Shown one piece after another: positions 11,621-39,136 of a DNA stretch of 64,000 nucleotides. The first letter of the stretch is position 1, and every line of letters begins with the position of its first letter. The notes beneath the pieces are model-generated. The model was not told the origin of the DNA. It saw only the letters and a program-made list of their open reading frames with translations, and did no database searches. The stretch is from an uncultured delta proteobacterium (GTDB lineage Bacteria > Desulfobacterota > Binatia > UBA9968), in NCBI GenBank assembly GCA_963803415.1, contig CAWDMI010000002.1, positions 1,536,369 to 1,600,368 on the forward strand, given 5' to 3'. The position numbers were made by a program, and so were the translations under genes.

Positions 11621-13060
11621 TCAGCGCAAGGATAAAAAAGCTCTGCGGCTCAACTCCAGAGCTGCGTTTGGCAAAATGCCGAAATAGAGGGTTGCCGCGA
11701 GCGTGACGGTTAGGGTCGCGTAAAGATAAGGAGAGTTGCGCATCGATTTTCCCTCAACTCCTCCCTGCTCCATATACATCATGACAATGACCCTGAGGTA
11801 GTAAACGAGGGAAAGGAGGCTGTTGAGGACGCCAATGATCGCCAAGTCTGTATAGCCCGACAAAACCGCTGCGCGGAACAAATAAAACTTGCCGGTAAAC
11901 CCTCCTAGAGGTGGAAAGCCCGCTAGAGATAACATGAATACCGACATCGCCATGGCCAAAAAAGGCCGCCGGAATCCGAGACCGGCAAAGTGGCGGTATT
12001 CTTCGTTGTCGTCGTCGTCGTTTTTTAAGGCCAGCACCACAGCGAAAGCCCCCAAGGTCATGGCTGCATAGGCCATGAGATAGAAAAGAAGGGCAGAGCC
12101 ACCAAATTCATCCCCTGCGACGACCGCAATCAGGAGATAACCGGCATGGGCGATACTGGAATAGGCCAGCATTCGCTTCACGCTCGTCTGTACGATCGCG
12201 AGCAGATTGCCCAACGTCATCGTCAGAATCGCCAGGATCCAGAAAACAATGCTCCATTCCTGACTCAGAGGCGCAAGCTGGTGCACGATGATCCGCCCCC
12301 AACCGGCAAAGGCGGCCGCCTTGACGGCAACAGCCATGAAAGCGGTAACCGAAGTTGGGGCGCCTTCATAAACATCGGGCGCCCAGAAATGAAAAGGCAC
12401 AGCGGCTACTTTAAAGGCAAGACCGATCACGATAAGAAAGGCTCCTGCCCTTAGAAGCAAATTTGACTCGTGGGCAGCCTGGATGAGATGAGTGCCGATA
12501 CGGGAGAGATTCGTGGAACCCGTGGCCCCATACATTAGTGCAATGCCGTATAAGAAAAAGCCTGTGGCAAATGCCCCGACCATGAAGTACTTCATCGCCG
12601 ACTCGCTCGATTGGGCTCTTTCACGCCATATGCCGGCGAGAACATAAACACCGATCGACATGGTTTCGAGGCCAAGAAAAAACAGAATCAGGTCGTTAGC
12701 CATCGCCATGAGAATCATGCCGAGCGTGGAAAAAAGGATCAGCGCGTAGTATTCACCGGCGGGGATCTTTGTTTCAGCCAAATAGCGCACGGAAAAAAGA
12801 ATGCAAAGTCCCGACACCGCTACGAACAAATTGGTGAAAAAAAGCCCGAAGTTGTCAAGAATAATGCTATCGTGGAAACCGGTCTCTTGACTCCCCCAAA
12901 GAAGCCACGCGATCGCCCCAACAATACTCAATCCGATCAAACTTATGGTAGCCAGCAGCCCTTTTTCATTCTCATTAAGAAAGAGGTCGAGGACCAGGAC
13001 GGTGAGTGCGGTGAGGGTGATCTCAGCCGCGGGAAGAAGAGGAGTTAAGTTGAGTTCCAT
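11621..13060 (-). CDS. nuoN: NADH-quinone oxidoreductase subunit N (operon 1)
   Basis: 479 aa polytopic antiporter-like subunit with the typical NuoN N-terminus. It is the last gene of a co-directional nuo cluster. Confidence 0.9.
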   Translation of the reverse strand: MELNLTPLLPAAEITLTALTVLVLDLFLNENEKGLLATISLIGLSIVGAIAWLLWGSQETGFHDSIILDNFGLFFTNLFVAVSGLCILFSVRYLAETKIPAGEYYALILFSTLGMILMAMANDLILFFLGLETMSIGVYVLAGIWRERAQSSESAMKYFMVGAFATGFFLYGIALMYGATGSTNLSRIGTHLIQAAHESNLLLRAGAFLIVIGLAFKVAAVPFHFWAPDVYEGAPTSVTAFMAVAVKAAAFAGWGRIIVHQLAPLSQEWSIVFWILAILTMTLGNLLAIVQTSVKRMLAYSSIAHAGYLLIAVVAGDEFGGSALLFYLMAYAAMTLGAFAVVLALKNDDDDNEEYRHFAGLGFRRPFLAMAMSVFMLSLAGFPPLGGFTGKFYLFRAAVLSGYTDLAIIGVLNSLLSLVYYLRVIVMMYMEQGGVEGKSMRNSPYLYATLTVTLAATLYFGILPNAALELSRRAFLSLR

Positions 13061-14609
13061 ACCTATTCTTAAGCGGGCTCTGGTTCTCTAATTTCAGTGG
13101 AGGAACCGAAAGCGTCACTTTTTTGTTTTCGATCCGCTGCAGAATCAGTTCGACTGCCGGCCTCATCCGGCGCAAAAAAGGATCAGGGTAGATGCCCATG
13201 ACGAAGATCAAAGCCAAGATGGGTGCGAGCGTGGCCAGTTCGCGGGCATTGAGGTCTCGAAGCTTTGCATTTTCCGGTCGATTTAAGGGACCAAAGACGA
13301 CGCGACGAAACATCCAGAGCATGTAGATAGGCGCCAAAATCATTCCGCCGGCCGCAGCTGCAGCCCAATAGGGAACAGTGGCGAATGCCCCTAAAAGGAT
13401 GAGAAACTCTCCGATAAAGCCGTTAAGACCGGGAAGCGCAACAGACGAGAAAGTGACGACCAGAAAACAGGACGAAAACAACGGTAGCGGTTTCCACAAG
13501 CCCCCGAAGTCAGCGATCATGCGCGTGTGGGTTCTTTCATAAATCATCCCGACAAGGAGAAACAGCGCCCCGGTCGAAAGACCGTGATTCAGCATCTGAT
13601 AGAGGGCGCCTTCGAGTCCGTTGGCATTCAGGACAAAGAGACCGAGGACGACCAATCCAAGATGGCTCACCGAGGAGTAAGCGACGAGTCTCTTCAAATC
13701 TGCCTGCATCATTGCCACCAGAGCGCCGTAAAGGATGCCGATGACGCCGAGCGCAATCAGCAGCGGTTGCAGGTTGAGGGCGACGTCAGGAAATAAGGGG
13801 ATCGCAAAGCGCAAAAAACCATAGGTTCCCATCTTTAACAGCACGCCGGCCAGAATCACTGAACCAGCAGTCGGTGCTTCGACGTGGGCTTCCGGGAGCC
13901 AGGTGTGCAGCGGAAAAATTGGTACTTTGATCGCGAAAGCGAGGGCAAAAGCGAGGAAAAGCCAGAACTGTTCTTCATAAGGCAGGTTGAGATCATAGAT
14001 CCGAAAAAGGTCGAAGGTCAGGTTTTGTGTGAGGTCCGCCTGGCGCACGGCAAGAAAGATAATCGCGATCAGCATCAGGAGACTGCCGCTCATGGTGTAA
14101 AGGACGAATTTGATTGCGGCGTAAACGCGCCGTGGCCCGCCCCAAACACCGATGATGAAGTACATCGGAATCAGCATCACCTCCCAGAAAACATAAAATA
14201 GAAAGAGATCGAGAGCGACAAAAGTACCGATCATTCCGGTTTCCAGGATGAGTATGAAGAACAGATACTCTTTGACCTTCTCGGTCACAGTCCGGGAGGC
14301 GAGAACGACAAGGGGGGTGAGAAACGTTGTGAGCAAGACCAGGAAGAGATTGATCCCGTCGACGCCGATGAAGTAGTCGATGCCGTATGCAGGAATCCAG
14401 GCAACGCGATCGATAAGCTGGGGCGCTGACTGCGTAGGATTAAAGAACCAGAGCATCCGTAGCGACCAGGCAAAGGTCAATGAGGTAAAAAACAGCGCCG
14501 TCTTGAAGAGCGCACCTGTTGCGTGGCGCGGCAATGCGATGAGACATAGTGCGCCGAGCGCGGGGAGAAAGACCAGAAGCGTAAGGGTTCCGGGAAACGT
14601 GCTTACCAT
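13023..14609 (-). CDS. nuoM: NADH-quinone oxidoreductase subunit M (operon 1)
   Basis: Antiporter-like subunit. The start is trimmed to the internal ATG (MVSTFPG...) that overlaps the nuoL stop. Confidence 0.9.
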   Translation of the reverse strand: MVSTFPGTLTLLVFLPALGALCLIALPRHATGALFKTALFFTSLTFAWSLRMLWFFNPTQSAPQLIDRVAWIPAYGIDYFIGVDGINLFLVLLTTFLTPLVVLASRTVTEKVKEYLFFILILETGMIGTFVALDLFLFYVFWEVMLIPMYFIIGVWGGPRRVYAAIKFVLYTMSGSLLMLIAIIFLAVRQADLTQNLTFDLFRIYDLNLPYEEQFWLFLAFALAFAIKVPIFPLHTWLPEAHVEAPTAGSVILAGVLLKMGTYGFLRFAIPLFPDVALNLQPLLIALGVIGILYGALVAMMQADLKRLVAYSSVSHLGLVVLGLFVLNANGLEGALYQMLNHGLSTGALFLLVGMIYERTHTRMIADFGGLWKPLPLFSSCFLVVTFSSVALPGLNGFIGEFLILLGAFATVPYWAAAAAGGMILAPIYMLWMFRRVVFGPLNRPENAKLRDLNARELATLAPILALIFVMGIYPDPFLRRMRPAVELILQRIENKKVTLSVPPLKLENQSPLKNRYGTQLNSSSSRG

Positions 14610-16531
14610 ATCTGACCGAATGCGTAATACCCAAGAATAATCAGCGTGCCTAGCAGGAAAACGAAGAGATAGTGCTGAACGTATCCTGACTGCAGCCGCC
14701 GCCAGCGAAAACCGATGCTCCAAATGAACCGCGCCACAGCGTTCACCGTGCCGTCAATGCCCCTCGGGTCAAAGGTATCCGCGAGCCACAAGGCATAACG
14801 TGTTAGAGGACGAACGAATGCAATCTCGTAGAATTCGTCAACATAGTATTTATTGAGTACCAAATTGTAGGTTATTCCCTCTGGAGTTAGCCCACTTGGG
14901 CGCCGATTCGGACGAGCATACATGGAATAGGCAAGCACGGCCCCCGAGACAGCGATTCCCAGTGTCAGGGTCAGAAGCAATAGCTCCGCGCTTAGGTTGC
15001 CGTGTGAGGCTTCGCCGTAATGGGCGAAGAACGATCCGAACCATAGATTCCACCAGTTACCTCCCATGAACTCGGGAACTCCCAACCAACCCGCGAGACT
15101 CGAGCCTAAAGCGAGCAGAATCAAGGGTAAGGTCATAACGATGGGTGATTCGTGAATCCCGCGGCGCGTGTCCTCCGTCGCCCGCGAGTGCCCGTGGAAA
15201 ACGAGGAAGAACTGGCGAAACATATAGAACGCGGTCAGGCCTGCGGTCAACCAGCCCACGAGCCAGAGCCAATACGAACCCTTGGCAAAAGCAAGCCACA
15301 AGATTTCGTCCTTGGAGAAGAAACCGGCGGTCAGCGGCGCGCCCGATATCGCGAGCGCGGCAATCAGGAAAGTCCAGTAAGTTACAGGAAAATGAGCTTT
15401 GAGCCCGCCCATCTTTCGCATGTCCTGTTCCCCGTGGAGACCGTGGATCACGCTGCCCGCAGACAGGAACAAGCACGCTTTGAAAAACGCGTGGGTAAAA
15501 AGATGAAAGATTGCCGCGGAGAAAGCGCCGATTCCAATAGCCAAAAACATGTAACCCAACTGGCTCACGGTGGAGTAGGCCAACACACGTTTGATGTCAT
15601 TTTGCACGAGAGCGATGGTTGCGGCGAAGATTGCCGTTGAGGCGCCAATCCAAGCAATGACTTCCAGAGTTGCGGGAGCCAGGGTGAAGAGAAAATGCAA
15701 GCGCGCGATCATGTAAACCCCAGCCGTGACCATAGTCGCGGCATGAATGAGCGCGCTCACGGGTGTCGGTCCTTGCATCGCATCGGGGAGCCAAACGAAA
15801 AGAGGGATTTGTGCCGACTTGCCTGTGGCGCCGGCAAAGAGGAGCAGCGTAATCAGAGTCACTTTCGCGGGCGCAAGCAGATGCGCATTGCGCTCAAGCA
15901 CGGCAAAATTGAGAGACGGGATTCCCTGATTGCTGATTTCCCAGAAAAGCAAAAGTATTCCCAGGATGAATCCAAAGTCGCCAATGCGATTGACGATGAA
16001 GGCTTTATTCCCGGCGATGGTGTTAGCAGGGTCGTGGTACCAAAAACCGATCAGAAGAAATGAGCACAATCCTACTCCTTCCCACCCGACAAAGAGAAGC
16101 AGGAGATTGTCTGCCACTACCAGTAGAGCCATAAAGAAGATGAAAAGGTTGAGGTAGGCGAAGTAGCGAACCATGCCTTCGTCGTGGCCCATATAGCCCA
16201 AAGAGTAAACGTGAATCAGAAATCCGATCCCGGTGATCACTAGAAGCATGATGGCACTGAGCCCGTCGACTTGCAGTGCGACGTCGACTTTGAAAAGGCC
16301 CGATTCGATCCAGGTGAAGAGATTGTCCTTTAACTCCCCGCCGCGCGGCAGGATGGAAAAGGCATAAAGGGAGAGAAGCAATGAAATGGCTACAGCCAGG
16401 CAGGCAAGAGCCCCTGCTGTTTTCCGACTCATGCGGTTGCCCAGAAGAACGTTAAGGATGGCGCCGAAAAGCGGTATCAAAGGAATCAACCGCAGCAGCG
16501 TCCAGTCGCTTGTTAAAGCGATAGGTTCCAT
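14603..16531 (-). CDS. nuoL: NADH-quinone oxidoreductase subunit L (operon 1)
   Basis: ~640 aa antiporter-like subunit with a long C-terminal extension. The start is trimmed to MEPIALTSD..., overlapping the nuoK stop. Confidence 0.9.
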   Translation of the reverse strand: MEPIALTSDWTLLRLIPLIPLFGAILNVLLGNRMSRKTAGALACLAVAISLLLSLYAFSILPRGGELKDNLFTWIESGLFKVDVALQVDGLSAIMLLVITGIGFLIHVYSLGYMGHDEGMVRYFAYLNLFIFFMALLVVADNLLLLFVGWEGVGLCSFLLIGFWYHDPANTIAGNKAFIVNRIGDFGFILGILLLFWEISNQGIPSLNFAVLERNAHLLAPAKVTLITLLLFAGATGKSAQIPLFVWLPDAMQGPTPVSALIHAATMVTAGVYMIARLHFLFTLAPATLEVIAWIGASTAIFAATIALVQNDIKRVLAYSTVSQLGYMFLAIGIGAFSAAIFHLFTHAFFKACLFLSAGSVIHGLHGEQDMRKMGGLKAHFPVTYWTFLIAALAISGAPLTAGFFSKDEILWLAFAKGSYWLWLVGWLTAGLTAFYMFRQFFLVFHGHSRATEDTRRGIHESPIVMTLPLILLALGSSLAGWLGVPEFMGGNWWNLWFGSFFAHYGEASHGNLSAELLLLTLTLGIAVSGAVLAYSMYARPNRRPSGLTPEGITYNLVLNKYYVDEFYEIAFVRPLTRYALWLADTFDPRGIDGTVNAVARFIWSIGFRWRRLQSGYVQHYLFVFLLGTLIILGYYAFGQIW

Positions 16532-16532: not shown

Positions 16533-16838
16533 TTACCCCTTGAGAAGATGCATTTCCTCGGGATCCAGGGTTTGGCGGTGGCGGTATCCCGCGATGATAA
16601 TCGCCAGTCCAATCACCGCCTCGGCCGCGGCCACGGTCATGACGAAGACTACAATCACCTGGCCTTCCATGGAACCCAGCGCGCGTGCGAAGGCAATGAA
16701 CGTCAAGTTAATCGCGTTCAGCATGAGCTCAATGGACATCAAGACGATAATGAGATTGCGTCGAATGATGACTCCGACGACTCCAATTGAAAAAATCAGA
16801 GCGCTGAGCACGAGGTAGTAATGGAGCGGAGCCATCAT
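16533..16838 (-). CDS. nuoK: NADH-quinone oxidoreductase subunit K (operon 1)
   Basis: 101 aa, 3 TM helices (MMAPLHYYLVLSALIFSIGVVGV...). The ORF is trimmed from a longer track ORF. Confidence 0.85.
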   Translation of the reverse strand: MMAPLHYYLVLSALIFSIGVVGVIIRRNLIIVLMSIELMLNAINLTFIAFARALGSMEGQVIVVFVMTVAAAEAVIGLAIIIAGYRHRQTLDPEEMHLLKG

Positions 16839-17341
16839 TGCTTTATTCGCCGCGCTAGCGTCACTGCTCCGACGATGGCGAGCAGGAGGAGGACCGACGC
16901 AACTTCGAAAGATAATACGAAGTCGGTAAACAGGGTTTGGCCCAGTGCTTCCGGGCTGCCGAACTGACTTCCGATCTGGTTCGTGGGCAATGCTTGAATC
17001 GGGTACGGACCCGGCATCACGAAACGTATGAGTTCTAGAGCGAGGAGGCCGCTCGCAGCGGCGGTCAATCCCCATGCCAAGGCAGATCCTCGTTCCACAG
17101 TCCCGGGATTGAGAAGCATGAGAACAAAGAGAAACAGCACCATGATCGCGCCCGCGTATACCAGGATCTGCAGAGCGGCGACCATCGGCGCGTTCAAGGT
17201 AAGGAACAGAACAGCCATGATGAACAACGCCGCAACCAGAGCCAGAGCGCTATGAACCGGATTTTGCGCCAGAATTACAAGGAGAGAAAAGCCAACCAGG
17301 AAAGTTGCTAAAAGAAAAAAACCCATGACCTCGATGCTCAT
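16835..17341 (-). CDS. nuoJ: NADH-quinone oxidoreductase subunit J (operon 1)
   Basis: ~168 aa, 5 TM helices (MSIEVMGFFLLATFLVGF...). It directly follows nuoH with no nuoI between them. Confidence 0.85.
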   Translation of the reverse strand: MSIEVMGFFLLATFLVGFSLLVILAQNPVHSALALVAALFIMAVLFLTLNAPMVAALQILVYAGAIMVLFLFVLMLLNPGTVERGSALAWGLTAAASGLLALELIRFVMPGPYPIQALPTNQIGSQFGSPEALGQTLFTDFVLSFEVASVLLLLAIVGAVTLARRIKQ

Positions 17342-17369
17342 CTTATGCGACCTCTGTTTTCCGACGAAC

Positions 17370-18461
17370 TCAAGCAGCAAGAACGACGATGCAAATTGCC
17401 GTAAGGATGAGATTGGCAAGTGCGACGGGCAAGAGCATTTTCCACCCCAGCCGCATGACCTGATCATACCGGAATCGGGGTAAAGTCCAGCGGATCAGAA
17501 TAAACAACCAGCAGAAAAAAACAGTCTTCGTCAGGAAAGCGGCTATTTGGAGCCCAACGATGACCAGGTGCGGCACCGTGAGCTCGCCGCCCCAAGGAAA
17601 ATGGAAGCCATCGCGAAACAGGAACGGGACTTGCCAGCCGCCAAAAAACAGCGTTGTGATTAGACCGGCTGCCGTCACCATCTCGGCAAACTCTCCGGCA
17701 AAAAACATTAGAAATTTGCCTCCGGAGTACTCCGTGTGGAAGCCTGCAACGAGTTCCGATTCTCCTTCCGGGAGGTCAAAGGGTACCCGTTTCGACTCTG
17801 CGACGGCCGCGGTGAAGAAAAGGAAGAAAGCAACAGGCTGCAAGACGATGCCCCAAGCCGGGAGCCACCCCCAAAGCAGGTGGCCCTGCGCGCGCGCGAT
17901 CTCCTGGAGTTCAAGCGTTCCGTAAACCATCAGGATCCCCATCACGGAGAGCCCCATCGCGACTTCGTAGGAGATCATTTGAGCAGAGCCGCGGATTCCA
18001 CCCAGCAAAGAGAATTTGTTGTTGGAGGCCCAGGCACCGATCACAATGCCGTAGACCCCTAGAGACGCCATGGCAAAAACGTATAGGATGCCAATGTTGA
18101 TGTTGGCGAGTTGAAGGTTAATTTCCCTTGATCCAATGATCAGAACGTCGCCGAAGGGAATAACCGCAAAAGTGACCAGAGCAGGAAACAAAGCCAAACA
18201 CGGGGCAAGGGTATGCAGGATTTTGTCCCCATAGGGTGGAATGAAATCCTCTTTGGTGAGAAATTTAATTGGGTCGGCGAGTACGGTATTGACAAGTCCC
18301 AAACCGGCAAAACCCATCAGGGACGCGCGATTGGCACCGATCCGGTCTTGAATCAGAGCGCTGCCCTTTCTTTCCACCCAGCCCATGACTCCTGCCAGAT
18401 TTAACACCAGGAACAGAACGATGAAGCTCTTAATCCCAATGATGCTGAGTTCGAAGAACAT
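17370..18461 (-). CDS. nuoH: NADH-quinone oxidoreductase subunit H (operon 1)
   Basis: 363 aa with NuoH/ND1 signatures (PFDLPEGESELVAGFHTEYSG). Confidence 0.9.
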   Translation of the reverse strand: MFFELSIIGIKSFIVLFLVLNLAGVMGWVERKGSALIQDRIGANRASLMGFAGLGLVNTVLADPIKFLTKEDFIPPYGDKILHTLAPCLALFPALVTFAVIPFGDVLIIGSREINLQLANINIGILYVFAMASLGVYGIVIGAWASNNKFSLLGGIRGSAQMISYEVAMGLSVMGILMVYGTLELQEIARAQGHLLWGWLPAWGIVLQPVAFFLFFTAAVAESKRVPFDLPEGESELVAGFHTEYSGGKFLMFFAGEFAEMVTAAGLITTLFFGGWQVPFLFRDGFHFPWGGELTVPHLVIVGLQIAAFLTKTVFFCWLFILIRWTLPRFRYDQVMRLGWKMLLPVALANLILTAICIVVLAA

Positions 18462-18470: not shown

Positions 18471-20042
18471 TTAAGATCCGAGCTGCGCGCCCAGCTCGCC
18501 CAACGTTTCGTAGGTCAGCGTCTGGTACGCGCTGATTTCCGCTGCGATCTGTTGGAAGATTTCCTGGGAGCTATGGTACGAAGCTTGCACACCGGCTTCG
18601 GCCAATAGACGGCTGAAGACTTCCCAGTCTTGGAGGACGTGATGCGGAGCAACAAGCGCCGCGCGTACCCTTTGGACTCTTCCCTTCCGATTAGTATAGG
18701 TCCCCTCTTTTTCGGCAAAATTGCTGGCTGGGAGGACCACGTGCGCGAGTTGGGCCGAGGCGCTCAAATAGGCGTCTTGAACCACCAGAAAAGAAAGCTT
18801 CTTAAGAGCATTCGGGATGTCGGGTCTCTCGGCAGAATAAGAGAGCAGGTCTTCGCCGACAAGATAGAGGCTCGAGAATTCATTTTGGATCAGCCGCTGC
18901 AGCCAGAAATCCATGCTCCCATCGGTACCGATTCCCATGTCTCTCGCCCCGCGAAAATTGGGAGAACGGTCCGGACTCATCAGGATCCTTGCGGTCTCTG
19001 AAAGCCCTCTTTCCTGATAAAAGACCGCTGAAACAGCTTTCGGACTCAGGTGCTTTAGCAATCGAGCGAAGAGAAAGGCTTCCTCGTTGGTGTTCCGGCC
19101 CGAGATAAGACCGGCGACGCATTCGGTGGCGCTCAGTCCTGCGAAAATTGTTCTGAGGGCTGTTTCCCAGTCCGTCGCAACGAGTCCCCCTTCTTGGCGG
19201 ATCAAAGGCGAGCTGAGACGCTCACCTTCTGTCAGGGAGTGGAAGCAGTAGCGCCCTTCGTCGCAGATCCAGTGACTGTTCACTTCTTCGTTGACCCGCG
19301 GCTTAAACCGGGAAATGCGGTTCTGGTAAGTTTCCACCTGGATGTTGCAGCCCGTGCTGCAGCCAGGACAAATCGAAGCCGTGCTCGTGAGGTACCAGAC
19401 ACGAACCTTAAAACGAAAATCGCGGTCGGTGAGAGCGCCTACCGGACAGATATCATTGACGTTCGCGGACAGCGGGTTATCCAGGAACTTGTCCGGGAAA
19501 AGGGCGATGGTTGACTGGTCCCCGCGATTGAGGATGGTCAGCTCTTCAGTGTGCGTGACTTCCTGGAGAAAACGGACGCAGCGAGTACATTTGATGCAGC
19601 GCTCAGCGTCGAAGATCACGTGCGGTCCAAAAACGTGTCGCTTCTGGTTGTGCACCTTGTTTTCCTGAAAGTGGCTGCTCATTAGATCGTGCTTCATGTA
19701 GTAGTCCTGCAACCAGCACTCTCCGGCCTGATCGCAGATGGGACAATCCAAGGGGTGATTAATGAGCAAGAACTCCATCACGGCGCGGCGGGCATCGAGA
19801 ACCTTTTGAGTTTGGGTTCTCACGACCATCCCCTCGGTTGCTTGCGTATTGCAAGCAATCTGTAATTTGGGCATCTTTTCGATCTCTACCAGGCACATGC
19901 GGCAGTTGCCGGCGATCGTAAGCTTCGGATGATAGCAATAGTGCGGGATCGAAATGCCCTCGTCCGCAGCTGCTTCGATAACGGTTTTCCCTTTGGTAAC
20001 TGTGGTTTCGTGCCCGTCGATTGTGAGTTTAACGGTGTCCAT
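18471..20042 (-). CDS. nuoG: NADH-quinone oxidoreductase subunit G (short form)
   Basis: N-terminal 2Fe-2S and 4Fe-4S cysteine clusters (CRMC...C; HPLDCPICDQAGEC; CIKCTRCVRF; CPVGALT), followed by a truncated molybdopterin-like domain. Length 523 aa. Confidence 0.9.
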   Translation of the reverse strand: MDTVKLTIDGHETTVTKGKTVIEAAADEGISIPHYCYHPKLTIAGNCRMCLVEIEKMPKLQIACNTQATEGMVVRTQTQKVLDARRAVMEFLLINHPLDCPICDQAGECWLQDYYMKHDLMSSHFQENKVHNQKRHVFGPHVIFDAERCIKCTRCVRFLQEVTHTEELTILNRGDQSTIALFPDKFLDNPLSANVNDICPVGALTDRDFRFKVRVWYLTSTASICPGCSTGCNIQVETYQNRISRFKPRVNEEVNSHWICDEGRYCFHSLTEGERLSSPLIRQEGGLVATDWETALRTIFAGLSATECVAGLISGRNTNEEAFLFARLLKHLSPKAVSAVFYQERGLSETARILMSPDRSPNFRGARDMGIGTDGSMDFWLQRLIQNEFSSLYLVGEDLLSYSAERPDIPNALKKLSFLVVQDAYLSASAQLAHVVLPASNFAEKEGTYTNRKGRVQRVRAALVAPHHVLQDWEVFSRLLAEAGVQASYHSSQEIFQQIAAEISAYQTLTYETLGELGAQLGS

Positions 20043-20045: not shown

Positions 20046-21317
20046 CTAAAGGGGCAAGGTGACGCATTTTTGCTGCTTGACATGGGCTTCGAATTCAGCG
20101 CGATATTTCTTGATAAAGGCAGCTGCCGGCATCGCGGCCGCGTCCCCGAAAGGACAGATCGTGTTGCCGATAATGTTTCCGCTGACGTTCAGGATCAAGT
20201 CTAGGTCCTTCATGGTTCCCTGCCCGTTCTCAATGCGGTGGAAGATCTTCTCCATCCAATGGCAACCCTCGCGGCAAGGAGTGCACTGGCCGCACGATTC
20301 ATGGGCAAAAAAACGCGCAATGTTCCAGGCGGCCTTGACCATGCAAGTCGTCTCATCCATGACAATCACACCCCCGGAACCCAGCAGCGAACCTGCCTGT
20401 TGCAGCGACTCATAATCGAGACGCACTCCTTCGATCTCATCGGCGCGCAGGACCGGCATCGACGCGCCGCCCGGGATGACCCCCTTAAGCGTTCTTCCGT
20501 TAGCGACGCCGCCACAATCTTCTTCCAGGAAACGCTGCAATGGATATCCCATCTCAAGCTCGTAAACTCCAGGGTTTTCGATATGGCCGCTGACGCTGAA
20601 CAGCTTGGTCCCTTTGCTTTTTTCCGTTCCCAGGGCGGCATAGGCCGCCGCACCACGGTCGATGATCCACGGAAGCGCGGCCAGGGTCTCGACGTTATTG
20701 ACAACGGTGGGACACCCAAACAATCCGTGAGTTGCCGGGAAGGGAGGTTTCACCTTGGGCCAGCCCTTGCCCCCTTCAAGCGACGAGATCAACGCTGTTT
20801 CTTCGCCGCAAATATATGCGCCCGCGCCGCGGTGCAGGATCAATTCTAAATCGTAGCCAGAGCCCAAGATCGATGCTCCCAAATAACCGGCTTCTTTTGC
20901 TTCCTCAATCGCCCTTTCCAGGACACGGCTGCCGAAAGCGAACTCACCGCGGATATAGATGAAGGCCATATGCGATCGGATCGCGTATGCTGCAATGATT
21001 GTGCCTTCAATCATCGCATGCGGATCCCGTTCAATGAGAATTCTGTCCTTAAAGGTGCCGGGTTCACTTTCGTCAGCGTTGCAGATCAGATATTTGGGCT
21101 TGGGGCTGTCCTTGGGAACAAAACTCCACTTCATGCCTGTGGGAAAACCAGCCCCGCCTCGACCTCTCAACCCTGAGTTCTTCACCTCCTCGATGACTTG
21201 CTCAGGGGATATCCCCTGAAGCACTTTTTCCAGAGCGCGATACCCGCCGCGTGATTTGTAGACTCTCAGTGTATGCGAATCACGCGCTTCAAGGTTGCGG
21301 AGGAGCAAGCTTTCCAT
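20046..21317 (-). CDS. nuoF: NADH-quinone oxidoreductase subunit F (NADH/FMN-binding, 51 kDa)
   Basis: FMN/NADH-binding glycine-rich motifs (GRGGAGFPTG; GAGAYICGEETALISSLEG) and the N3 4Fe-4S cysteines (ESCGQCTPCREG). Confidence 0.95.
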   Translation of the reverse strand: MESLLLRNLEARDSHTLRVYKSRGGYRALEKVLQGISPEQVIEEVKNSGLRGRGGAGFPTGMKWSFVPKDSPKPKYLICNADESEPGTFKDRILIERDPHAMIEGTIIAAYAIRSHMAFIYIRGEFAFGSRVLERAIEEAKEAGYLGASILGSGYDLELILHRGAGAYICGEETALISSLEGGKGWPKVKPPFPATHGLFGCPTVVNNVETLAALPWIIDRGAAAYAALGTEKSKGTKLFSVSGHIENPGVYELEMGYPLQRFLEEDCGGVANGRTLKGVIPGGASMPVLRADEIEGVRLDYESLQQAGSLLGSGGVIVMDETTCMVKAAWNIARFFAHESCGQCTPCREGCHWMEKIFHRIENGQGTMKDLDLILNVSGNIIGNTICPFGDAAAMPAAAFIKKYRAEFEAHVKQQKCVTLPL

Positions 21318-21326: not shown

Positions 21327-21824
21327 TCAACGTGGATCGGGTGACTGCAACTCTTCCAAGCTCTGGATGATTGCCGCGACCGTCTCTTCGGAAAGATTTT
21401 CGTAGTAGTCGTCGTTGATTTGCATCATGGGCGCCGTACCGCAAGAAGCCAAACATTCGACTTCAGAGAGAGTGAACTTGCCGTTCGGGGTAGTCTCGCC
21501 GACTTGGATGCCGAGCTTGGATTTGAGAATCGCAGTGATTTTCTCGGCTCCTTTAAGCGCGCACGGAAGTGTCCGGCAAACTTGGATATGATGGTGCCCG
21601 ATCGGTTTCATATTGAGCATGGTGTAGAAAGTCACCACTCCGTAGACCCGAGCCACGGGCAGCTGCAGGATTGTCGCGACATAATCAACGGCTTGGGAGC
21701 TCAGATGGCCGAATTCTTGTTGCGCCAGGTAAAGAACGGGCAGCAGTGCGGCCTCTTTTTTGGGATAGCGCTGCACGAGTTCGGTAAACTTTCGCAGCGC
21801 CGCCGGGGAGAACTCTAAAACCAT
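21327..21824 (-). CDS. nuoE: NADH-quinone oxidoreductase subunit E (24 kDa, 2Fe-2S)
   Basis: 165 aa with thioredoxin-like 2Fe-2S cysteines (CRTLPC ... CLASCGTAP). Confidence 0.9.
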   Translation of the reverse strand: MVLEFSPAALRKFTELVQRYPKKEAALLPVLYLAQQEFGHLSSQAVDYVATILQLPVARVYGVVTFYTMLNMKPIGHHHIQVCRTLPCALKGAEKITAILKSKLGIQVGETTPNGKFTLSEVECLASCGTAPMMQINDDYYENLSEETVAAIIQSLEELQSPDPR

Positions 21825-23607: not shown

Positions 23608-23613
23608 GAAATT

Positions 23614-25269: not shown

Positions 25270-25385
25270 TGCATGGGGTCATCCCAGCGTGGCACAAATT
25301 GTTGGGCATTCTTAGTGAATGGCAAACGAGATGGCTGCGGCAGCCTTTCTTTTTCCTCTTTTAAATGAGTTGTGCTCGGGCGATG

Positions 25386-25970: not shown

Positions 25971-27602
<1,632 letters not shown>

Positions 27603-27609
27603 TTAAAAC

Positions 27610-27906: not shown

Positions 27907-28062
27907 CCTCCCTTAAAACTATATTTTATCTTGTCAACTAACGGTGAAATTCGGTGAAGTCGGTGTGCAATTTAACTTCGATTCTTGAAACGTCAAGGGG
28001 TGATGGGTTAGTTTGCTGGAGAATTCTTGTGCGCCAAGAAATCTCGAGCGGGGGACTAATCT

Positions 28063-28695
28063 ATGGAAGATAAGCCGATCAAAATTTGGGGAAGAAGAGA
28101 TTCATCCAACGTCCAAAAGGTTCTGTGGTGTTGCGCGGAACTTGGTCTTTCTTACGAGCGAATCGATCTCGGAGGTCGATTTGGCGGTAACCAGGAGAAT
28201 TCCTATCTGCGTCTTAACCCAAACGGGTTGGTCCCCACAATCGAAGATGGCGGTTTTGTCCTTTGGGAATCAAATAGCATCATCCGCTACCTTGCCGAGA
28301 AATATGGTCGGGAGAGGTTGGTGCCTGTTACTGCTGAGGGTCGAGCCAATGCTAACCGGTGGATGGACTGGCAACTGACAACGATAAGTTCAAGCATGGT
28401 GCCCCTTTTCTGGGGGCTCATTCGGACTCCGGAAGAGAAGAGAAACCGGGATATGATCGAACAGGCATTGAAGAAAGCGACCAAGACCTGGGAGATTTTG
28501 AATAAACACTTGGCAACGAGTTCTTTTGTTGCAGGCGAAAAGTTCAGCATCGGTGATATCCCGCTGGGGGTATGGGTGTACCGATGGTTCAACCTTCCTA
28601 TAGAACGGCGAACCATGGAGCACCTGAACACTTGGTATGGTCGTCTCCTGGAGAGCGTGGCATACCAAACTCAGGTAATGATTCCTCTGACCTGA
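28063..28695 (+). CDS. Glutathione S-transferase family protein
   Basis: N-terminal thioredoxin-like GST domain (IKIWGRRDSSNVQKVLWCCAELGL...ESNSIIRYLAEKYG) and a C-terminal helical domain. Its GC content is noticeably lower than that of its neighbours. Confidence 0.85.
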   Translation: MEDKPIKIWGRRDSSNVQKVLWCCAELGLSYERIDLGGRFGGNQENSYLRLNPNGLVPTIEDGGFVLWESNSIIRYLAEKYGRERLVPVTAEGRANANRWMDWQLTTISSSMVPLFWGLIRTPEEKRNRDMIEQALKKATKTWEILNKHLATSSFVAGEKFSIGDIPLGVWVYRWFNLPIERRTMEHLNTWYGRLLESVAYQTQVMIPLT

Positions 28696-34790: not shown

Positions 34791-35357
34791 CTATCCCTCC
34801 TCAGCGCCTGCCCCTCCACTTTTCTCCGGGGTGGCAAATTCATCTAGGTATTTTAGACCGACTTCAACCTTCCCAATCATTTTCGATTCCGTTTCTCCGC
34901 CCTTCTTGGGTTTGTACAACGGAACCGGCTGGGTAACAAAGTGGCGCACCAATCCAGCCGGATTGTAACTGGCCCCTTCGAATTCCTGGGAATGACGGAT
35001 CGACCCAGTCGGACAAGCCTCAGCGCAAAGGCCGCAGTACATGCATTTACAGATATCGATGTCAAAGTGGGTGAATCCCCGCTGCTTGGTTTCCTTATTC
35101 ATCTCGATGCCGATGGTGATGCAGGTAATCGGGCAGACCCTTTCGCAGGCAAGGCAACCTGTGCAGATGTCCATGTCGACTTCGAGAATTCCGCGATAGC
35201 GCAGGGGCAGTGTTTCTTGAACCGGCTTCTCTATCTTGTCCGGGTATTGGATCGTTGAAGGACGGCGCACCAGATGCGAGAAGGTAATGGCCATACCTTC
35301 GAAGATCGTGGTAACCACTTCGACAATGTTCCGTGCATAACTAGTTACGGTGTCCAT
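34791..35357 (-). CDS. nuoI: NADH-quinone oxidoreductase subunit I (2x[4Fe-4S] ferredoxin-like)
   Basis: Two CxxCxxCxxxCP motifs (CTGCLACERVCP; CMYCGLCAEACP). Length 188 aa. Confidence 0.9.
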   Translation of the reverse strand: MDTVTSYARNIVEVVTTIFEGMAITFSHLVRRPSTIQYPDKIEKPVQETLPLRYRGILEVDMDICTGCLACERVCPITCITIGIEMNKETKQRGFTHFDIDICKCMYCGLCAEACPTGSIRHSQEFEGASYNPAGLVRHFVTQPVPLYKPKKGGETESKMIGKVEVGLKYLDEFATPEKSGGAGAEEG

Positions 35358-35362: not shown

Positions 35363-36550
35363 TTAAATATGTGGTTTAAAATAGAGCGTCGGTCGTGCTT
35401 TTTGGATCTGGTAATTCACGCGAATGAAAAACCGCGCCAATATCAACAAACCCAAGACGAACATTGCACTACTCAGGAGACGATTTCCCTGTGGCCAGAT
35501 CAACATCCAAATGGCCGTTCCCAATAGGCAGAAAAACGAAAGCGGTACCATGTACTTCCAGCAAAGCGACATAAGCTGGTCAACTCTAACACGGGGTAGG
35601 GTTGCCCTGACCCACATGGCCACAAAAACCCACAGGTAGGCCTTCACAAAGAAGAGGATAAATTGAAGCACGCCCTGTAGAGTCGGATTGTCCGTAAGCG
35701 GTGGAATTTGCCAGCCCCCAAGGAATAAGGTTGTGGCCACAGCACCAATCACGTAAAGGTTGCCCCATTCTGCGAAGAAGAAAAAGAGGAAGCGCATGCC
35801 GCTGTACTCCGTAACGTAACCGGCAACCAGTTCGGATTCGGCTTCGGGAATGTCAAAGGGAGTGCGGTTTCCCTCAGCTAGAGCCGCGGTAAAGTATAGG
35901 AAGAAAGCGGCGAAGGTAAAAGGGTTATAAAATAAGTACCAATCCCACGGAGCCCAGCCTTGATTCTTGATAATCCCTTGCATGCTCAGGGTCCCTGCCA
36001 CAAGCACGATATTGAGAATTGCTAACCCTGCGGGTATCTCGTAACTCACAATCTGTGCCGCCGAACGCATGCCGCCAAGGAGGGACCATTTGTTGTTTGA
36101 CGACCAACCAGCCATGAGAATGCCAACCACGACCAGCGAGGTGACGGCAAGGATGTAAAGAATGCCGATATTGAGGTCGGCGACAATAAGTTGGCTCCCA
36201 AACGGAATTACGACGAAGGTCGCCAGAAAGCCGACAAAGACGACGTAAGGGGCCAGCGAAAAAAGCCACTTGTCGGCGTCGGCAGGGATAATATCTTCCT
36301 TGAGGAGGTTTTTGATTCCATCCGCAAGCCATTGCAGAATGCCCTGAGGCCCAACCCGATTGGGACCGACTCGCGATTGCATCCGAGCCCAGACCCTGCG
36401 CTCCAGCCAGCTCGTGACGCCGGCGAGCGGCGCGACAAAAAAGGACAAGACGGCAAAGGCGGCAAGGAGCATCGCAATAGCGTAGACGGCCTGCCGCGGT
36501 GTCCCGGAAAAGTACCCTTCTTGAATCAACTTATCGATCAGGGCTTGCAT
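35363..36550 (-). CDS. nuoH: NADH-quinone oxidoreductase subunit H (operon 2)
   Basis: 395 aa NuoH/ND1 (PFDIPEAESELVAGYVTEYSG). Confidence 0.9.
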   Translation of the reverse strand: MQALIDKLIQEGYFSGTPRQAVYAIAMLLAAFAVLSFFVAPLAGVTSWLERRVWARMQSRVGPNRVGPQGILQWLADGIKNLLKEDIIPADADKWLFSLAPYVVFVGFLATFVVIPFGSQLIVADLNIGILYILAVTSLVVVGILMAGWSSNNKWSLLGGMRSAAQIVSYEIPAGLAILNIVLVAGTLSMQGIIKNQGWAPWDWYLFYNPFTFAAFFLYFTAALAEGNRTPFDIPEAESELVAGYVTEYSGMRFLFFFFAEWGNLYVIGAVATTLFLGGWQIPPLTDNPTLQGVLQFILFFVKAYLWVFVAMWVRATLPRVRVDQLMSLCWKYMVPLSFFCLLGTAIWMLIWPQGNRLLSSAMFVLGLLILARFFIRVNYQIQKARPTLYFKPHI

Positions 36551-36562: not shown

Positions 36563-37705
36563 TTAGCGGTCGATCTCCGGCGCGTCGACGTCCAGACTGG
36601 CAATTAAGGCGATCAGATCCGCGACCATGAGGCCGCGGCTGATCTTCTCGATCAGACTCATAGCGGTATACGAGCCGGTGCGGATACGAACCCGATAAGG
36701 GTATTCACTCCCATCGCTGACGACGTAGAAACCCATATCTCCGCGTGCGCTTTCAATGCGGACGTAGACCTCGCCGGCAGGCGGTTTGAACCTTCGCGGC
36801 ACTTTGGCGATGGCCGGCCCGTGTGGCAACATCTTTAGACACTGGCGCAGCTGCTTGCAGCTCTCCTGCATTTCAAGCACCCGCACCCAGTAGCGGTCAT
36901 AGCAATCGCCCATCGTTCCTTTTCCGCCGGTGCCCACCGGAACTTCGAACTCCAGCTCGGGATAGATCGAGTAAGGGATGTCTCTGCGAATGTCCCATTT
37001 TAAACCACAGGCACGCAGGTTGGGCCCTACAATATTATACTGAAACGCATCCTCCAATGTGATCACGGCAACGTTCGCTAACCGCTCAATGAAAATTTTA
37101 TTGTAAGACAGCAGTCGATTGTATTCATCGACGATCGGCTCAAAGTGATCGAGAAATTCGGTGATGCGACCGCAGGTTTCTCCGGTGATGTCGTAACCAA
37201 CGCCACCGATGCGAATATAGTTATAGGTCAGCCTTGCGCCGCAAATCGTCTCCATCAGGTCGTTGATGGTTTCCCTCTCCCTTAGAGCGTGAAGAAAGGG
37301 CGTGATGGCGCCGATGTCCTGACCGAAGGTTCCTACGGAAATCAAGTGGCTTGCGATACGGTTGAGTTCGCAGGCGATGACCCGGCAGAACTCGCCCCGG
37401 CGCGTGACCTCGATGTTCGCCAGCTTCTCCGCTGCCATACAGAAGGCCTGGTTAGTGAACATCGCAGCCAGGTAGTCTGCGCGATCGGTATATGGGACGT
37501 AGCCGTGCCAAGTCACCTTCTCGCCGATCTTTTCGATCGAGCGGTGCAAGTATCCGACATCGGGAACGGCTTCGCTCATGACTTCACCGTCGGTTTTAAC
37601 GACGAACCGAAGCACACCGTGGGTACTGGGGTGCTGCGGGCCCATACTGATGGTCATATCTTCAGTATGAAAGATCGGCTCTGTCGTCGGAGTCGTTTTG
37701 CTCAT
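36563..37705 (-). CDS. nuoD: NADH-quinone oxidoreductase subunit D (operon 2)
   Basis: 380 aa ([12 protein letters not shown]...). Confidence 0.9.
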
Positions 37706-37711
37706 AATGGT

Positions 37712-38218
37712 TTACCGGAGCAGTTTTTCTACCAAGGGGGCCCTTTCGGTGCTGATCCCGTCGTATTCTTCCTGTTCCACATAATCCTTGCGCAAGGGAT
37801 GACCGACCCAATCTTCCGGGAGCAAGATGCGTCTCAGGTCGCTGTGGCCCTCAAAAATCACGCCGAATAGATCAAAAACCTCCCGTTCAAACCAGTTAGC
37901 TGCCTTCCAAACGCTTTCCATCGTCGAAACGTGCGGGACCTCGCGGGGAAGATTCACCTTGAGGACAGCCTGATGGCGATGGGTATAGGAATAGAGGTGG
38001 TAAACCACTTGAATCCAGTTCTCTTTGGGCAGGTCCAGTGCTGTTAGATCGGAAAGAATCTCGAACCGAAACTCCGGCTCATCGCGAAGGTAGGTACAAA
38101 CCTCCACGATGACTGCAGGGTCAACATAAAAATAGGGTTCTAAGACACTTCCGTTAAATTCACGGACCTTGCCTGGAAACCGGCGCTCAGTCTTTTCGTA
38201 CAGCTCGTTTGCTTCCAT
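37712..38218 (-). CDS. nuoC: NADH-quinone oxidoreductase subunit C (operon 2)
   Basis: 168 aa (VWKAANWFEREVFDLFGVIFEGHSDLRRILL). Confidence 0.9.
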   Translation of the reverse strand: MEANELYEKTERRFPGKVREFNGSVLEPYFYVDPAVIVEVCTYLRDEPEFRFEILSDLTALDLPKENWIQVVYHLYSYTHRHQAVLKVNLPREVPHVSTMESVWKAANWFEREVFDLFGVIFEGHSDLRRILLPEDWVGHPLRKDYVEQEEYDGISTERAPLVEKLLR

Positions 38219-38221
38219 GGG

Positions 38222-38731
38222 TTAAGCCCCGACGGATTCCTCCGTGGCGGGCTTTCTAACCAGCCACCGCTCCCGCATCATTTTTTGCTGAATTTTCAGC
38301 AGGCCTTCGGTAAGAGCTTCAGGACGCGGCGGACATCCAGGAACGTAGACATCCACCGGGACAATCTTATCGACGCCTTTGCATACCGAATATGCCAGTT
38401 GAAAGAGCCCCCCGCAGTTCGAACAGCTTCCCATGGAAATAACGTACTTCGGGTCGGGCATTTGGTCGTAGAGGAGCTTTGTCCGCTTGGCCATCTTATA
38501 CGTCAGGGTACCGGCGACGATCATGAGGTCCGACTGGCGTGGGGTCGCGCGGGGAACACAGCCGAATCGATCCAGGTCGGCGCGTGGGCCGCCGGTCTGC
38601 ATGAGCTCGATTGCGCAGCACGCAAGACCAAACAGCATATACCACTGCGAGGAAGCCCTTCCCCAATTGAGAAGGCTATCCACTTTGGTAGTGAAAACGG
38701 TGTCCGGCAAAGAGTTAAGAAGTGGTTTCAC
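38222..38731 (-). CDS. nuoB: NADH-quinone oxidoreductase subunit B (N2 cluster, PSST)
   Basis: 169 aa with N2-cluster cysteines (GLACCAIE ... GSCSNCGG ... GCPP). This is the only nuoB in the window. Confidence 0.9.
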
Positions 38732-38749
38732 ACATTTTCTCCCGTAAAC

Positions 38750-39136
38750 CTAGGGATTGATTTTTTTGACCCAATCCAAATCGCCCTTTTTCCATGCGTA
38801 GACTAGGCCGATTAGAAGAATTGCCAGAAAAACGAAGATTTCACTAAAAGCAAAAAGTCCCCGACCGTTTTCGATCCAGCGACGAAAAGTTGCGGCAACA
38901 GGAAAAACAAAAGCGATCTCAACTTCAAAGATGATAAAGATCAGTGCGGTGATGTAGAAGCGTATGTTGAAGTTAACCCATGCGCTGCCCGTAGCTGGCT
39001 CGCCGCATTCATAAGAGGAAAGTTTACGCTCCTGAGGGTTCGCCGGGCGAAGGAGGCGGCCGATAAGCAGGTTGACACCCACAAAGGCTGCCCCAAGAAA
39101 CGTAAACACTAAAACGTTAGCAAAATCAAACAACAT
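38750..39136 (-). CDS. nuoA: NADH-quinone oxidoreductase subunit A (operon 2)
   Basis: 128 aa, 3 TM, first gene of operon 2. Confidence 0.85.
   Translation of the reverse strand: MLFDFANVLVFTFLGAAFVGVNLLIGRLLRPANPQERKLSSYECGEPATGSAWVNFNIRFYITALIFIIFEVEIAFVFPVAATFRRWIENGRGLFAFSEIFVFLAILLIGLVYAWKKGDLDWVKKINP

Follow-up and report, generated by a model that had tools for sequence, protein, structure and literature searches.

A complex I operon without nuoB and nuoI in a presumed member of the Binatia, and the probable relocation of the two genes

The stretch of DNA analysed here, 64 kb long and hereafter called the window, carries two complex I operons, one of which (operon 1) has neither nuoB nor nuoI; both genes are truly missing from it, and the only copies in the window are those of the second (operon 2). 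The window lineage is uncultured, and by sequence similarity the organism would belong to the Binatia. Probably operon 1 encodes an ordinary 14-subunit complex I whose nuoB and nuoI have been relocated, beside an independent 11-subunit complex. An ordinary enzyme with scattered genes is most likely because relatives hold matching nuoB and nuoI copies elsewhere; judging from these relatives, it is quite likely that this organism has such orphan genes too, and their products would presumably join the operon 1 subunits.

Gene content of the two operons

Operon 1 runs from 23970 down to 11621 on the minus strand in the order nuoA-C-D-E-F-G-H-J-K-L-M-N. According to Pfam it codes for 12 of the 14 complex I core subunits, with standard domains, and every one of the 12 ORFs has an intact reading frame and a full-length match.

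23614..23970, minus strand: nuoA, 118 aa (PF00507, E 2.5e-38)
23608..23613, minus strand: nuoA-nuoC junction, the usual nuoB site, 6 nt (sequence read)
23044..23607, minus strand: nuoC, 187 aa (PF00329, E 2.6e-48)
21832..23022, minus strand: nuoD, 396 aa (PF00346), mitochondrial/Thermus-like type
21327..21824, minus strand: nuoE, 165 aa (PF01257, E 8.5e-57)
20046..21317, minus strand: nuoF, 423 aa (PF01512, PF10589, SLBB), FMN/NADH site and N3 cluster region
18471..20042, minus strand: nuoG, short form, 523 aa (Fer2_4, NADH-G_4Fe-4S_3, Fer4_Nqo3, Molybdop_Fe4S4, partial Molybdopterin domain)
17370..18461, minus strand: nuoH, 363 aa (PF00146, E 1.6e-108)
17342..17369, minus strand: nuoH-nuoJ junction, the usual nuoI site, 28 nt (sequence read)
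16835..17341, minus strand: nuoJ, 168 aa from the ATG at 17341 (PF00499), start refined
16533..16838, minus strand: nuoK, about 101 aa (PF00420), start refined
14603..16531, minus strand: nuoL, about 642 aa (PF00361, PF00662), start refined
13023..14609, minus strand: nuoM, 528 aa (PF00361, PF01059), start refined
11621..13060, minus strand: nuoN, 479 aa (PF00361)

The nuoC ATG at 23607 lies 6 nt beyond the nuoA stop (23614-23616) and the nuoJ ATG at 17341 lies 28 nt beyond the nuoH stop (17370-17372); reading of these two junctions revealed no gene remnants, and Pfam found no extra Fer4 or Oxidored_q6 domain on the neighbouring genes. Pfam on all ORFs and the reading of both gaps thus bear out the earlier note in its claims that operon 1 has no nuoB or nuoI and that no ferredoxin-like or PSST-like sequence is fused to a neighbour. 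A tblastn search of all six frames of the window with the operon 2 proteins (NuoB2 and NuoI2) and with orphan-type NuoB and NuoI returned the operon 2 genes only. It also holds, as the same note argued, that operon 1 alone would be insufficient for a working enzyme, since the subunits bearing N2 (NuoB) and N6a/b (NuoI) are missing.

The N-module for NADH oxidation is complete in operon 1 by the domains of NuoF, NuoE and NuoG (Pfam, with TIGR01973 for NuoG at 474.8 bits against a cut-off of 470), and we take its cofactors to be the FMN/NADH site and N3 in NuoF, N1a in NuoE and N1b, N4 and N5 in NuoG. NuoD of operon 1 (NuoD1) has both quinone-site motifs, GPSHPATHG and IPYTDRLNY, in which, by the established Thermus and Yarrowia structures, the residues that matter are His in HPxxHG, on the beta1-beta2 loop, and Tyr in PYxDR. 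It scores above the NCBIfam cut-offs of NF004739 (482 bits) and TIGR01962 (481 bits), and in the PDB it scores highest against the mitochondrial 49-kDa subunit (389 bits), followed by Thermus Nqo4 (353) and NdhH (286).

Operon 2 runs from 39136 to 28750 as nuoA-B-C-D-H-I-J-K-L-M-N and, as first described, is of the 11-subunit type without E, F and G (Pfam). A spacer with four genes (24298..28695, mixed strands, Pfam) lies in the 4.8 kb between the operons.

38750..39136, minus strand: nuoA, 128 aa (PF00507)
38222..38731, minus strand: nuoB, 169 aa (PF01058), N2 ligand motifs present, including GCPPRPE
37712..38218, minus strand: nuoC, 168 aa (PF00329)
36563..37705, minus strand: nuoD, 380 aa (PF00346), NdhH-like type, top PDB match cyanobacterial NdhH (322 bits)
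35363..36550, minus strand: nuoH, 395 aa (PF00146)
34791..35357, minus strand: nuoI, 188 aa (Fer4 families), NdhI-like, two CxxCxxCxxxCP motifs
34169-34669, minus strand: nuoJ (Pfam)
33848-34156, minus strand: nuoK (Pfam)
31785-33827, minus strand: nuoL (Pfam)
30242-31762, minus strand: nuoM (Pfam)
28750-30234, minus strand: nuoN (Pfam)
28063-28695, plus strand: GST, spacer (Pfam)
27610-27906, minus strand: groES, spacer (Pfam)
25971-27590, minus strand: groEL, spacer (Pfam)
24298-25269, minus strand: trypsin-like protease, spacer (Pfam)

The 4Fe-4S motifs of NuoI2 read CTGCLACERVCP and CMYCGLCAEACP; in the PDB it resembles cyanobacterial NdhI most (95 bits, while mitochondrial TYKY reaches 75), and it falls under every NCBIfam NuoI cut-off (best score 98, cut-off 163). 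The gene order of operon 2 is also found in the loci L085, L087, L090 and L125. The electron donor expected of such an enzyme is ferredoxin, flavodoxin or F420H2 instead of NADH; Pfam showed no donor-module gene adjoining operon 2 here. Cyanobacterial and chloroplast NDH-1, which are 11-subunit enzymes without NuoEFG, have exactly the same gene set; unlike in those systems, no NdhS/O/V-type accessory genes were seen near operon 2. This 11-subunit complex I-like type has been described as 'ancestral' (PMC3144371), and an enzyme of the kind is reported from Desulfitobacterium hafniense (PMC11238625). Operon 2, which has a NuoB and a NuoI to itself, probably encodes a separate and self-sufficient NDH-1-like complex.

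The layout and the missing genes in relatives

The loss pattern, whose possible recurrence in related genomes the earlier note had raised, recurs in about 80: the order without nuoB and nuoI is present in every related locus of sufficient length (L002-L083, from about 80 genomes at species level that carry the label Binatia or 'Deltaproteobacteria'), with NuoD 77-86% identical across the class. The nuoA-nuoC gap has a median of 9 nt and a maximum of 10 in 76 related loci, and in 55 the median distance from the end of nuoH to the start of nuoL is 814 nt, enough for nuoJ plus nuoK only. Neither frameshifts nor relaxed selection were seen in the operon 1 genes across relatives. Since the layout recurs at such NuoD identity, it is a conserved and selected one rather than a product of local decay.

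Relatives also point to where the missing genes may lie. In the class to which those with the B/I-less operon belong, the Binatia, there is a second, divergent NuoB encoded outside any nuo operon, 39-47% identical (about 42%) to the operon-2-type NuoB, the orphans being 77-93% identical among themselves. In the relatives' sequences it keeps all N2 motifs (ACCAMEYM, GACASTGG and GCPPRPE) and passes the NCBIfam NuoB equivalog NF011392, whereas NuoB2 passes a different one, NF011393 (302.7 bits, cut-off 255); its PDB profile is flat, at 162-172 bits. The orphan type is abundant in Binatia-labelled MAGs, with 90%-identity clusters of 956, 408, 357, 86 and 35 members, and sits in a conserved neighbourhood of Metallophos, a hypothetical gene, APH, nuoB, two hypothetical genes, ubiE and polyprenyl synthase; other lone nuoB genes neighbour NifU/Rrf2 or SUF genes. 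These settings hint that Fe-S or quinone supply regulates these subunits separately. Co-occurrence of the orphan nuoB with the operon lacking nuoB and nuoI was observed in one MAG, GCA_050257635.1 (JBLMXG01), and depends on its correct binning: contig 120 carries the operon (L057), contig 77 the lone nuoB (L174).

A stand-alone TYKY-type NuoI is found in the Binatia assembly GCA_046327955.1 (L091:460-1047) and on the metagenome contigs L126 and L145. The L091 protein has both CxxCxxCxxxCP motifs; its top PDB matches are NDUFS8/TYKY at 83-92 bits, against just 36 for NdhI, and its score on TIGR01971 is 101.5, under the cut-off of 113. None of the relatives' loci examined belongs to a genome showing both the orphan NuoI and the operon without nuoB and nuoI.

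By sequence comparison, the affinity of both orphans is operon-1-like. Complete A-B-C-D-E-F-G-H-I clusters from other lineages (L160, L167 and L170) have every subunit nearer operon 1 of the window than operon 2, with NuoD at 46-54% against 36-39% and NuoH at 53-56% against 37-40%. Their in-operon NuoB shares 67-69% identity with the orphan NuoB and 39-45% with NuoB2, and their in-operon NuoI 46-58% with the orphan NuoI and 31-36% with NuoI2; the NuoI of a Myxococcales cluster (L084) gives 56% against 35%. The two types also split by their structural matches, NuoI2 being NdhI-like and NuoD of operon 2 (NuoD2) NdhH-like, NuoD1 and the orphan NuoI mitochondrial or TYKY-like. In L154, L162 and L166 an operon-2-type cluster with its own B2-type NuoB (73-77%) stands head-to-head with an operon-1-type cluster carrying its own B, and each complex would therefore ancestrally have had its cognate NuoB. 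As operon-2-type clusters keep nuoB and nuoI even beside operon-1-type clusters with their own B, the complementary gene content of the two operons in the window is most likely coincidental. The order A-C-D-E-F-G-H-J-K-L-M-N with a lone nuoB and a lone nuoI is most likely the fixed state in the Binatia.

We thus propose that operon 1 holds most of the genes for an NADH-oxidising 14-subunit complex I, whose small [4Fe-4S] connecting subunits NuoB (N2) and NuoI (N6a/b) would be encoded by unlinked chromosomal genes. Assembly and catalysis would follow the usual complex I scheme. NADH is predicted to reduce the FMN in NuoF, from where electrons would pass along the clusters of NuoE, NuoF and NuoG, reach first N6a/b, borne by the orphan TYKY-type NuoI, and next N2, borne by the orphan NuoB, and finally reduce quinone at the NuoD/NuoH/NuoB site; proton pumping by NuoL, NuoM and NuoN would be coupled to this transfer.

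Sharing, docking or decay

Among the three explanations offered in the earlier note, additional copies elsewhere gain support from the orphans in relatives, and shared NuoB/NuoI and a docking NADH module lose it. Sharing would mean that the sole nuoB and nuoI are those of operon 2 and that their products enter both complexes, the NADH-oxidising one then being a hybrid of operon 1 subunits with NuoB2 and NuoI2. The window itself, with no second nuoB or nuoI and with operons so close together, fits this idea, as do the extreme conservation of NuoB2 (its cluster at 90% identity has 2187 members) and its mitochondrial-like PDB profile (PSST 206 bits, Thermus 166), which resembles that of NuoD1 with its best match to the mitochondrial 49-kDa subunit. 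A functional analogue would be the cyanobacterial NDH-1L and NDH-1MS, which share a common core including the whole Q-module and vary in NdhD/F. The evidence here favours no sharing: most relatives with the B/I-less operon have no adjacent operon 2, the pair being seen, besides the window lineage, only in L071; nuoB and nuoI loci with operon-1-like affinity occur in relatives, and such orphans are abundant in the class; NuoD1 shares only 38% identity with NuoD2; and the NdhI-like NuoI2 would have to dock onto NuoG, a partner that an NDH-1-type NuoI would never have met. Mixing of subunits between complex I clades was moreover rare in a phylogenomic survey (PMC4453560). It is accordingly unlikely that the orphans were lost in this lineage and that the NuoB and NuoI of operon 2 serve both a ferredoxin-type 11-subunit and an NADH-type complex. 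If they did, complex I would occur here as a natural hybrid, its N2/N6 subunits serving two Q-modules only about 38% identical, and such sharing between divergent complexes would be of strong interest to complex I specialists.

Far less probable is the docking of NuoE, NuoF and NuoG from operon 1 onto the 11-subunit core of operon 2, with the other operon 1 genes redundant or forming a second membrane arm. The subunit contents do appear complementary; however, operon 1 keeps a full and highly conserved Q-module and membrane set (A, C, D, H and J-N), a class-wide conservation that would be pointless under docking, and relatives have cognate operon-1-type B and I and mostly no adjacent operon 2. 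Least credible of all is that operon 1 is a decaying, non-functional remnant or the gap an assembly artefact, for although two essential genes are missing from the cluster, all of its ORFs are intact, its junctions hold no remnants, the mis-assembly by collapsed repeats that the earlier note had considered is no concern between paralogues only 28-54% identical, and the independent Logan assembly ERR11718635 gives the nuoA-nuoC junction and the H2-I2-J2 order at 100% identity, the same junctions recurring in about 80 other genomes.

Known systems and significance

The ordinary enzyme with relocated nuoB and nuoI, which we favour, closely resembles canonical Nuo/Nqo (Thermus thermophilus, Paracoccus and the mitochondrial core): operon 1 has 12 of its 14 subunits, and NuoD, NuoG and, in relatives, the orphan NuoB pass the NCBIfam equivalog cut-offs. 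It differs in the short NuoG and in the operon without nuoB and nuoI, presumed to be unlinked. A precedent for a stand-alone nuoB away from the main cluster is NUO-2 of Nitrospina gracilis, scattered as nuoACHIJKLMN, nuoEGD and lone nuoB2 and nuoF2 (PMC3578206), although the Nitrospina cluster retains nuoI and its NuoF/G have extra clusters, whereas in the present case the displaced genes are B and I alone and NuoE/F/G look standard. In Acidobacteria, 'nuoACDHJKLMN operons, one with nuoEFG' have been reported (Hausmann et al., bioRxiv 10.1101/197269), a formula that omits B and I as operon 1 does. MBNT15 SHF-111 has adjacent nuoA-N and nuoABCDHIJKLMN clusters (PMC9386147), with 31-60% identity between paralogues where the window has 28-54%; its 14-gene cluster is reported with B and I, unlike operon 1. 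Both cases show the pairing of an NADH-type with an 11-subunit cluster found here, and neither study analysed where nuoB and nuoI lie or which complex they serve. We found no description in the literature of a class-wide displacement of just the two small [4Fe-4S] connecting subunits.

The class-wide loss of nuoB and nuoI from the operon is a modest curiosity and opens no new mechanism. If the favoured reading is true, operon-completeness pipelines would miscall the NADH-type complex I of Binatia as 'incomplete', and the same miscall is probable for Acidobacteria and for further soil lineages that published work mentions. Most likely the NADH-type enzyme of the Binatia lacks no subunit, its nuoB and nuoI lying elsewhere in the genome.

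Two nuo clusters of different content

The window holds two sets of complex I genes (Pfam), whose products are distinguished here by the digits 1 and 2, and they lie among the following genes.

Features of the window
702-5839: iron-related cluster, comprising the next three genes
702-2603: CCP/MauG-like di-haem protein
2972-4933: FTR1 iron permease fused to a cytochrome c domain
5168-5839: DtxR-type regulator with a FeoA domain
23970 down to 11621, minus: operon 1, nuoA-C-D-E-F-G-H-J-K-L-M-N
Between the operons: trypsin-like protease, groESL and GST genes (Pfam)
39136 down to 28750, minus: operon 2, nuoA-B-C-D-H-I-J-K-L-M-N
39370-40215, plus: ABC-transporter permease gene flanking the triplet below
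40216-44380, minus: MoxR AAA ATPase, DUF58 and TgpA transglutaminase-like triplet
44444-45340, minus: second flanking ABC-transporter permease gene

The earlier note had reported that operon 1 lacks nuoB and nuoI, and this is borne out by the Pfam assignments, the gene junctions, a search of the window and an independent assembly. Read from the sequence, only 6 nt lie between the nuoA1 stop and the nuoC1 ATG (23607), and 28 nt between the nuoH1 stop and the nuoJ1 ATG (17341). Pfam finds no added ferredoxin domain or PSST domain (the mitochondrial NuoB counterpart) on the adjoining proteins, and tblastn of NuoB2, NuoI2 and their orphan-type counterparts (see below) against the whole window returned the operon-2 genes only; together these rule out a hidden copy in the window or a fusion with an adjoining gene. 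Collapsed repeats between the nuoL, nuoM and nuoN copies, which the note had named as a possible source of error, did not hold up. The paralogous subunits of the two operons are only 28-54% identical and both loci were recovered at 100% identity in an independent Logan assembly, so the absence of the two genes is real; mis-assembly is ruled out by this divergence and by the same junctions in independent assemblies and 80 genomes.

NuoG1 (18471-20042) has 523 aa, and its relatives 523-529 aa; only the end of the molybdopterin-like domain is present, and Thermus Nqo3 and E. coli NuoG are far longer. Consensus scans for promoters and terminators performed no better than shuffled sequence. Upstream of nuoA1, TTGACA and TACAAA stand 17 nt apart (24049-24077), a possible operon-1 promoter that the scanner did not report because its -10 hexamer lacks the final T.

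A layout fixed across the class

Close homologues of NuoD1, at about 80% identity, number in the thousands and are labelled mostly Binatia or 'Deltaproteobacteria'; a scan with NuoD1, at one genome per species, gave 80 loci (best match 86%). Every locus long enough to tell reads A-C-D-E-F-G-H-J-K-L-M-N, with neither B nor I; A and C are separated by a median of 9 nt and by 10 at most (76 loci), and the end of H and the start of L are a median of 814 nt apart (55 loci), which corresponds to J and K only. The loss pattern, which the note had proposed to look for in related genomes, thus recurs throughout, and since the order is the same in all readable loci, we regard the layout without nuoB and nuoI (hereafter B/I-less) as a fixed, selected feature of the whole class.

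Operon 2 is generally not adjacent to operon 1 in these relatives, and only L071 shares the window's arrangement of nuoN2 upstream of nuoA1 (L numbers denote loci from other genomes or metagenome contigs). Three loci (L046, L038 and L049) exceed the median H-L distance by about 300-370 nt, located between nuoJ/nuoK and nuoL and without similarity to NuoI. An additional nuoA-C-D mini-cluster (L040:9228-11188, L042:453-2493) is present in some Binatia MAGs whose B/I-less operon is full (L026, L023); its NuoD shares 79% identity with NuoD1, and there are no other nuo genes within 10 kb of it. In L040 it is flanked by a globin gene and a NuoF-like gene on one side and by a SUF operon (Rrf2, SufC, SufBD, SufS, NifU, SufT) on the other. 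The Myxococcales locus L084:9006-14052 reads nuoA-C-D-G-H-I: nuoE and nuoF are absent, as is nuoB from its place between A and C, but nuoI is kept, a further pattern of partial relocation.

Orphan nuoB and nuoI genes and their affinity

Searching the homologues of NuoB2 for a second type of NuoB was uninformative, as the best 120 hits are all at least 79% identical, an unusual conservation that takes in the labels Binatia, Terriglobia and Thermodesulfobacteriota. The second type came to light in the flanks of operon-2 relatives in complete genomes of 4.3-5.0 Mb, where NifU and Rrf2 flank an extra Oxidored_q6 gene a short way upstream of nuoA2. Its product is about 42% identical to NuoB2 and has all the ligand motifs for N2, the Fe-S cluster of NuoB, and its homologues are abundant, including proteins named Binatia and Binataceae. 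When metagenomes were scanned with a Binatia member and the subunits were typed, these orphan genes fell into three contexts.

Contexts of orphan nuoB
Context 1: nuoB-nuoF-nuoG mini-cluster
Context 2: nuoB upstream of operon 2
Context 3: nuoB alone, in the conserved order Metallophos, hypothetical, APH, nuoB, two hypotheticals, ubiE, polyprenyl synthase

The mini-cluster, which has no nuoE, is conserved in Binataceae-labelled genomes (L091:10001-13433, L092:10001-13663 and some 30 loci among L094-L147). Identity to the operon-1 subunits is 52-63% for its NuoF and 40-64% for its NuoG, the upper NuoG values being partial matches on truncated contigs, and this NuoF stands roughly as far from operon-1 NuoF as from the in-operon NuoF of complete operons; the mini-cluster could be either the complement of a main cluster without F and G or an extra module. 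In the second context, found in 4.3-5-Mb genomes labelled 'Desulfurellaceae' (L087:4127-9480, L090:4268-9536, L118, L119, L123-L125, L131), nuoB stands between NifU and the Rrf2 regulator directly upstream of the 11-subunit operon, preceded by two Mrp/ApbC-like genes, DUF971, a 2Fe-2S ferredoxin and a ferredoxin reductase, a setting that suggests a link of NuoB to Fe-S assembly or regulation. At 90% identity the lone type falls into clusters of 956, 408, 357, 86 and 35 members, with the names Candidatus Binatia or Deltaproteobacteria. Two conserved Pfam-less ORFs, one of about 87-103 aa and one of 276 aa in most loci, always separate it from ubiE and the polyprenyl synthase gene (L130:10585-11889, L174:5137-6258, L176-L185), and they may encode unrecognised accessory or assembly factors.

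A stand-alone orphan nuoI is found as well. In the Binatia assembly GCA_046327955.1 a two-cluster ferredoxin of 196 aa adjoins an HtrA-like gene; it is a TYKY-type NuoI, with PDB scores of 83-92 bits for NDUFS8/TYKY (the mitochondrial NuoI counterpart) and 80 for Thermus Nqo9 but no more than 36 for cyanobacterial NdhI. L126 and L145 have a similar orphan nuoI upstream of nuoB-F-G, at a distance of about 5 kb.

Score profiles against PDB chains, tried as a proxy for affinity, were clear for NuoD1, NuoD2, NuoI2 and the orphan NuoI: the profiles of NuoD1 and of the orphan NuoI resemble the mitochondrial/Thermus type and those of NuoD2 and NuoI2 the NDH-1 type, in line with the identities given below. 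They were ambiguous for NuoB, the orphan giving a flat profile and NuoB2 (38222-38731) a mitochondrial/Paracoccus-like one (206 and 202 bits versus 173-178 for NdhK). NuoB2 here contrasts with its partners NuoD2 and NuoI2, which score best with cyanobacterial NdhH and NdhI. In place of the proxy, the sequences were compared directly with their in-operon orthologues. In L160, L167 and L170, complete A-B-C-D-E-F-G-H-I clusters from the metagenome scan, the gene between nuoA and nuoC encodes a more distant relative of the orphan NuoB (62-74% identity), and every subunit is nearer to operon 1 than to operon 2.

Identity of L160, L167 and L170 subunits to the two operons
Subunit A: 41-50% to operon 1, 30-40% to operon 2
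Subunit C: 43-57% to operon 1, 30-41% to operon 2
Subunit D: 46-54% to operon 1, 36-39% to operon 2
Subunit H: 53-56% to operon 1, 37-40% to operon 2

Their in-operon B is 67-69% identical to orphan NuoB versus 39-45% to NuoB2, and their in-operon I 46-58% to orphan NuoI versus 31-36% to NuoI2; in L084, where NuoD is 56% identical to NuoD1, the in-operon NuoI is 56% identical to the orphan versus 35% to NuoI2. An all-against-all comparison of 67 NuoB sequences gave two clean groups, 37-50% identical between them: the operon-2 type (71-100% internally), and a second group in which the orphans (70-100% mutually) are joined by the B subunits encoded within operon-1-like clusters (58-76% to the orphans). 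NCBIfam assigns them to separate equivalogs, NF011393 for the NuoB2 type and NF011392 for the orphan type, both above cut-off.

A probable relocation of two subunit genes

The most economical reading is that operon 1 encodes the bulk of an ordinary 14-subunit NADH:quinone oxidoreductase whose nuoB and nuoI have been relocated, and that operon 2 encodes an independent 11-subunit NDH-1-like complex. A third nuoB/nuoI locus of operon-1-like affinity, which the note had held to speak against its own interpretation, is found in relatives and, for nuoB, in one bin with an identical operon: MAG GCA_050257635.1 (JBLMXG01), labelled Chloroflexota yet with Binatia-type genes, has the B/I-less operon on contig 120 (L057), while its contig 77 (L174) carries a lone nuoB within the conserved gene order given above. 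Two further candidates for such co-occurrence (P0527, P0464) proved to lie in assemblies outside the set of operon-1 loci. The note's observation was correct and its interpretation over-exciting.

That NuoB2 and NuoI2 serve both complexes in this genome is unlikely, even with theirs the only such genes in the window: L154, L162 and L166 have an operon-2-type cluster with B2-type NuoB head-to-head with an operon-1-type cluster with its own B, implying a cognate B for each complex ancestrally. Docking of NuoEFG on the operon-2 core, which lacks that module, is very improbable here. That operon 1, for all its missing subunits, is non-functional or an artefact is scarcely credible beside its constancy across the class.

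Comparable arrangements have been described. MBNT15 has adjacent nuoA-N and nuoABCDHIJKLMN clusters of 31-60% identity (PMC9386147), acidobacterial MAGs have 'nuoACDHJKLMN operons', one with nuoEFG (10.1101/197269), and nuoB2 of Nitrospina NUO-2 is a lone gene (PMC3578206). Hybrid complexes were rare in a phylogenomic survey (PMC4453560). B/I-less operons receive passing mentions only, and we found no paper in which the relocation of the two genes is itself analysed. Complex I and its 11-subunit relative are of known kinds, and it is the split gene layout, class-wide, that has been little described.
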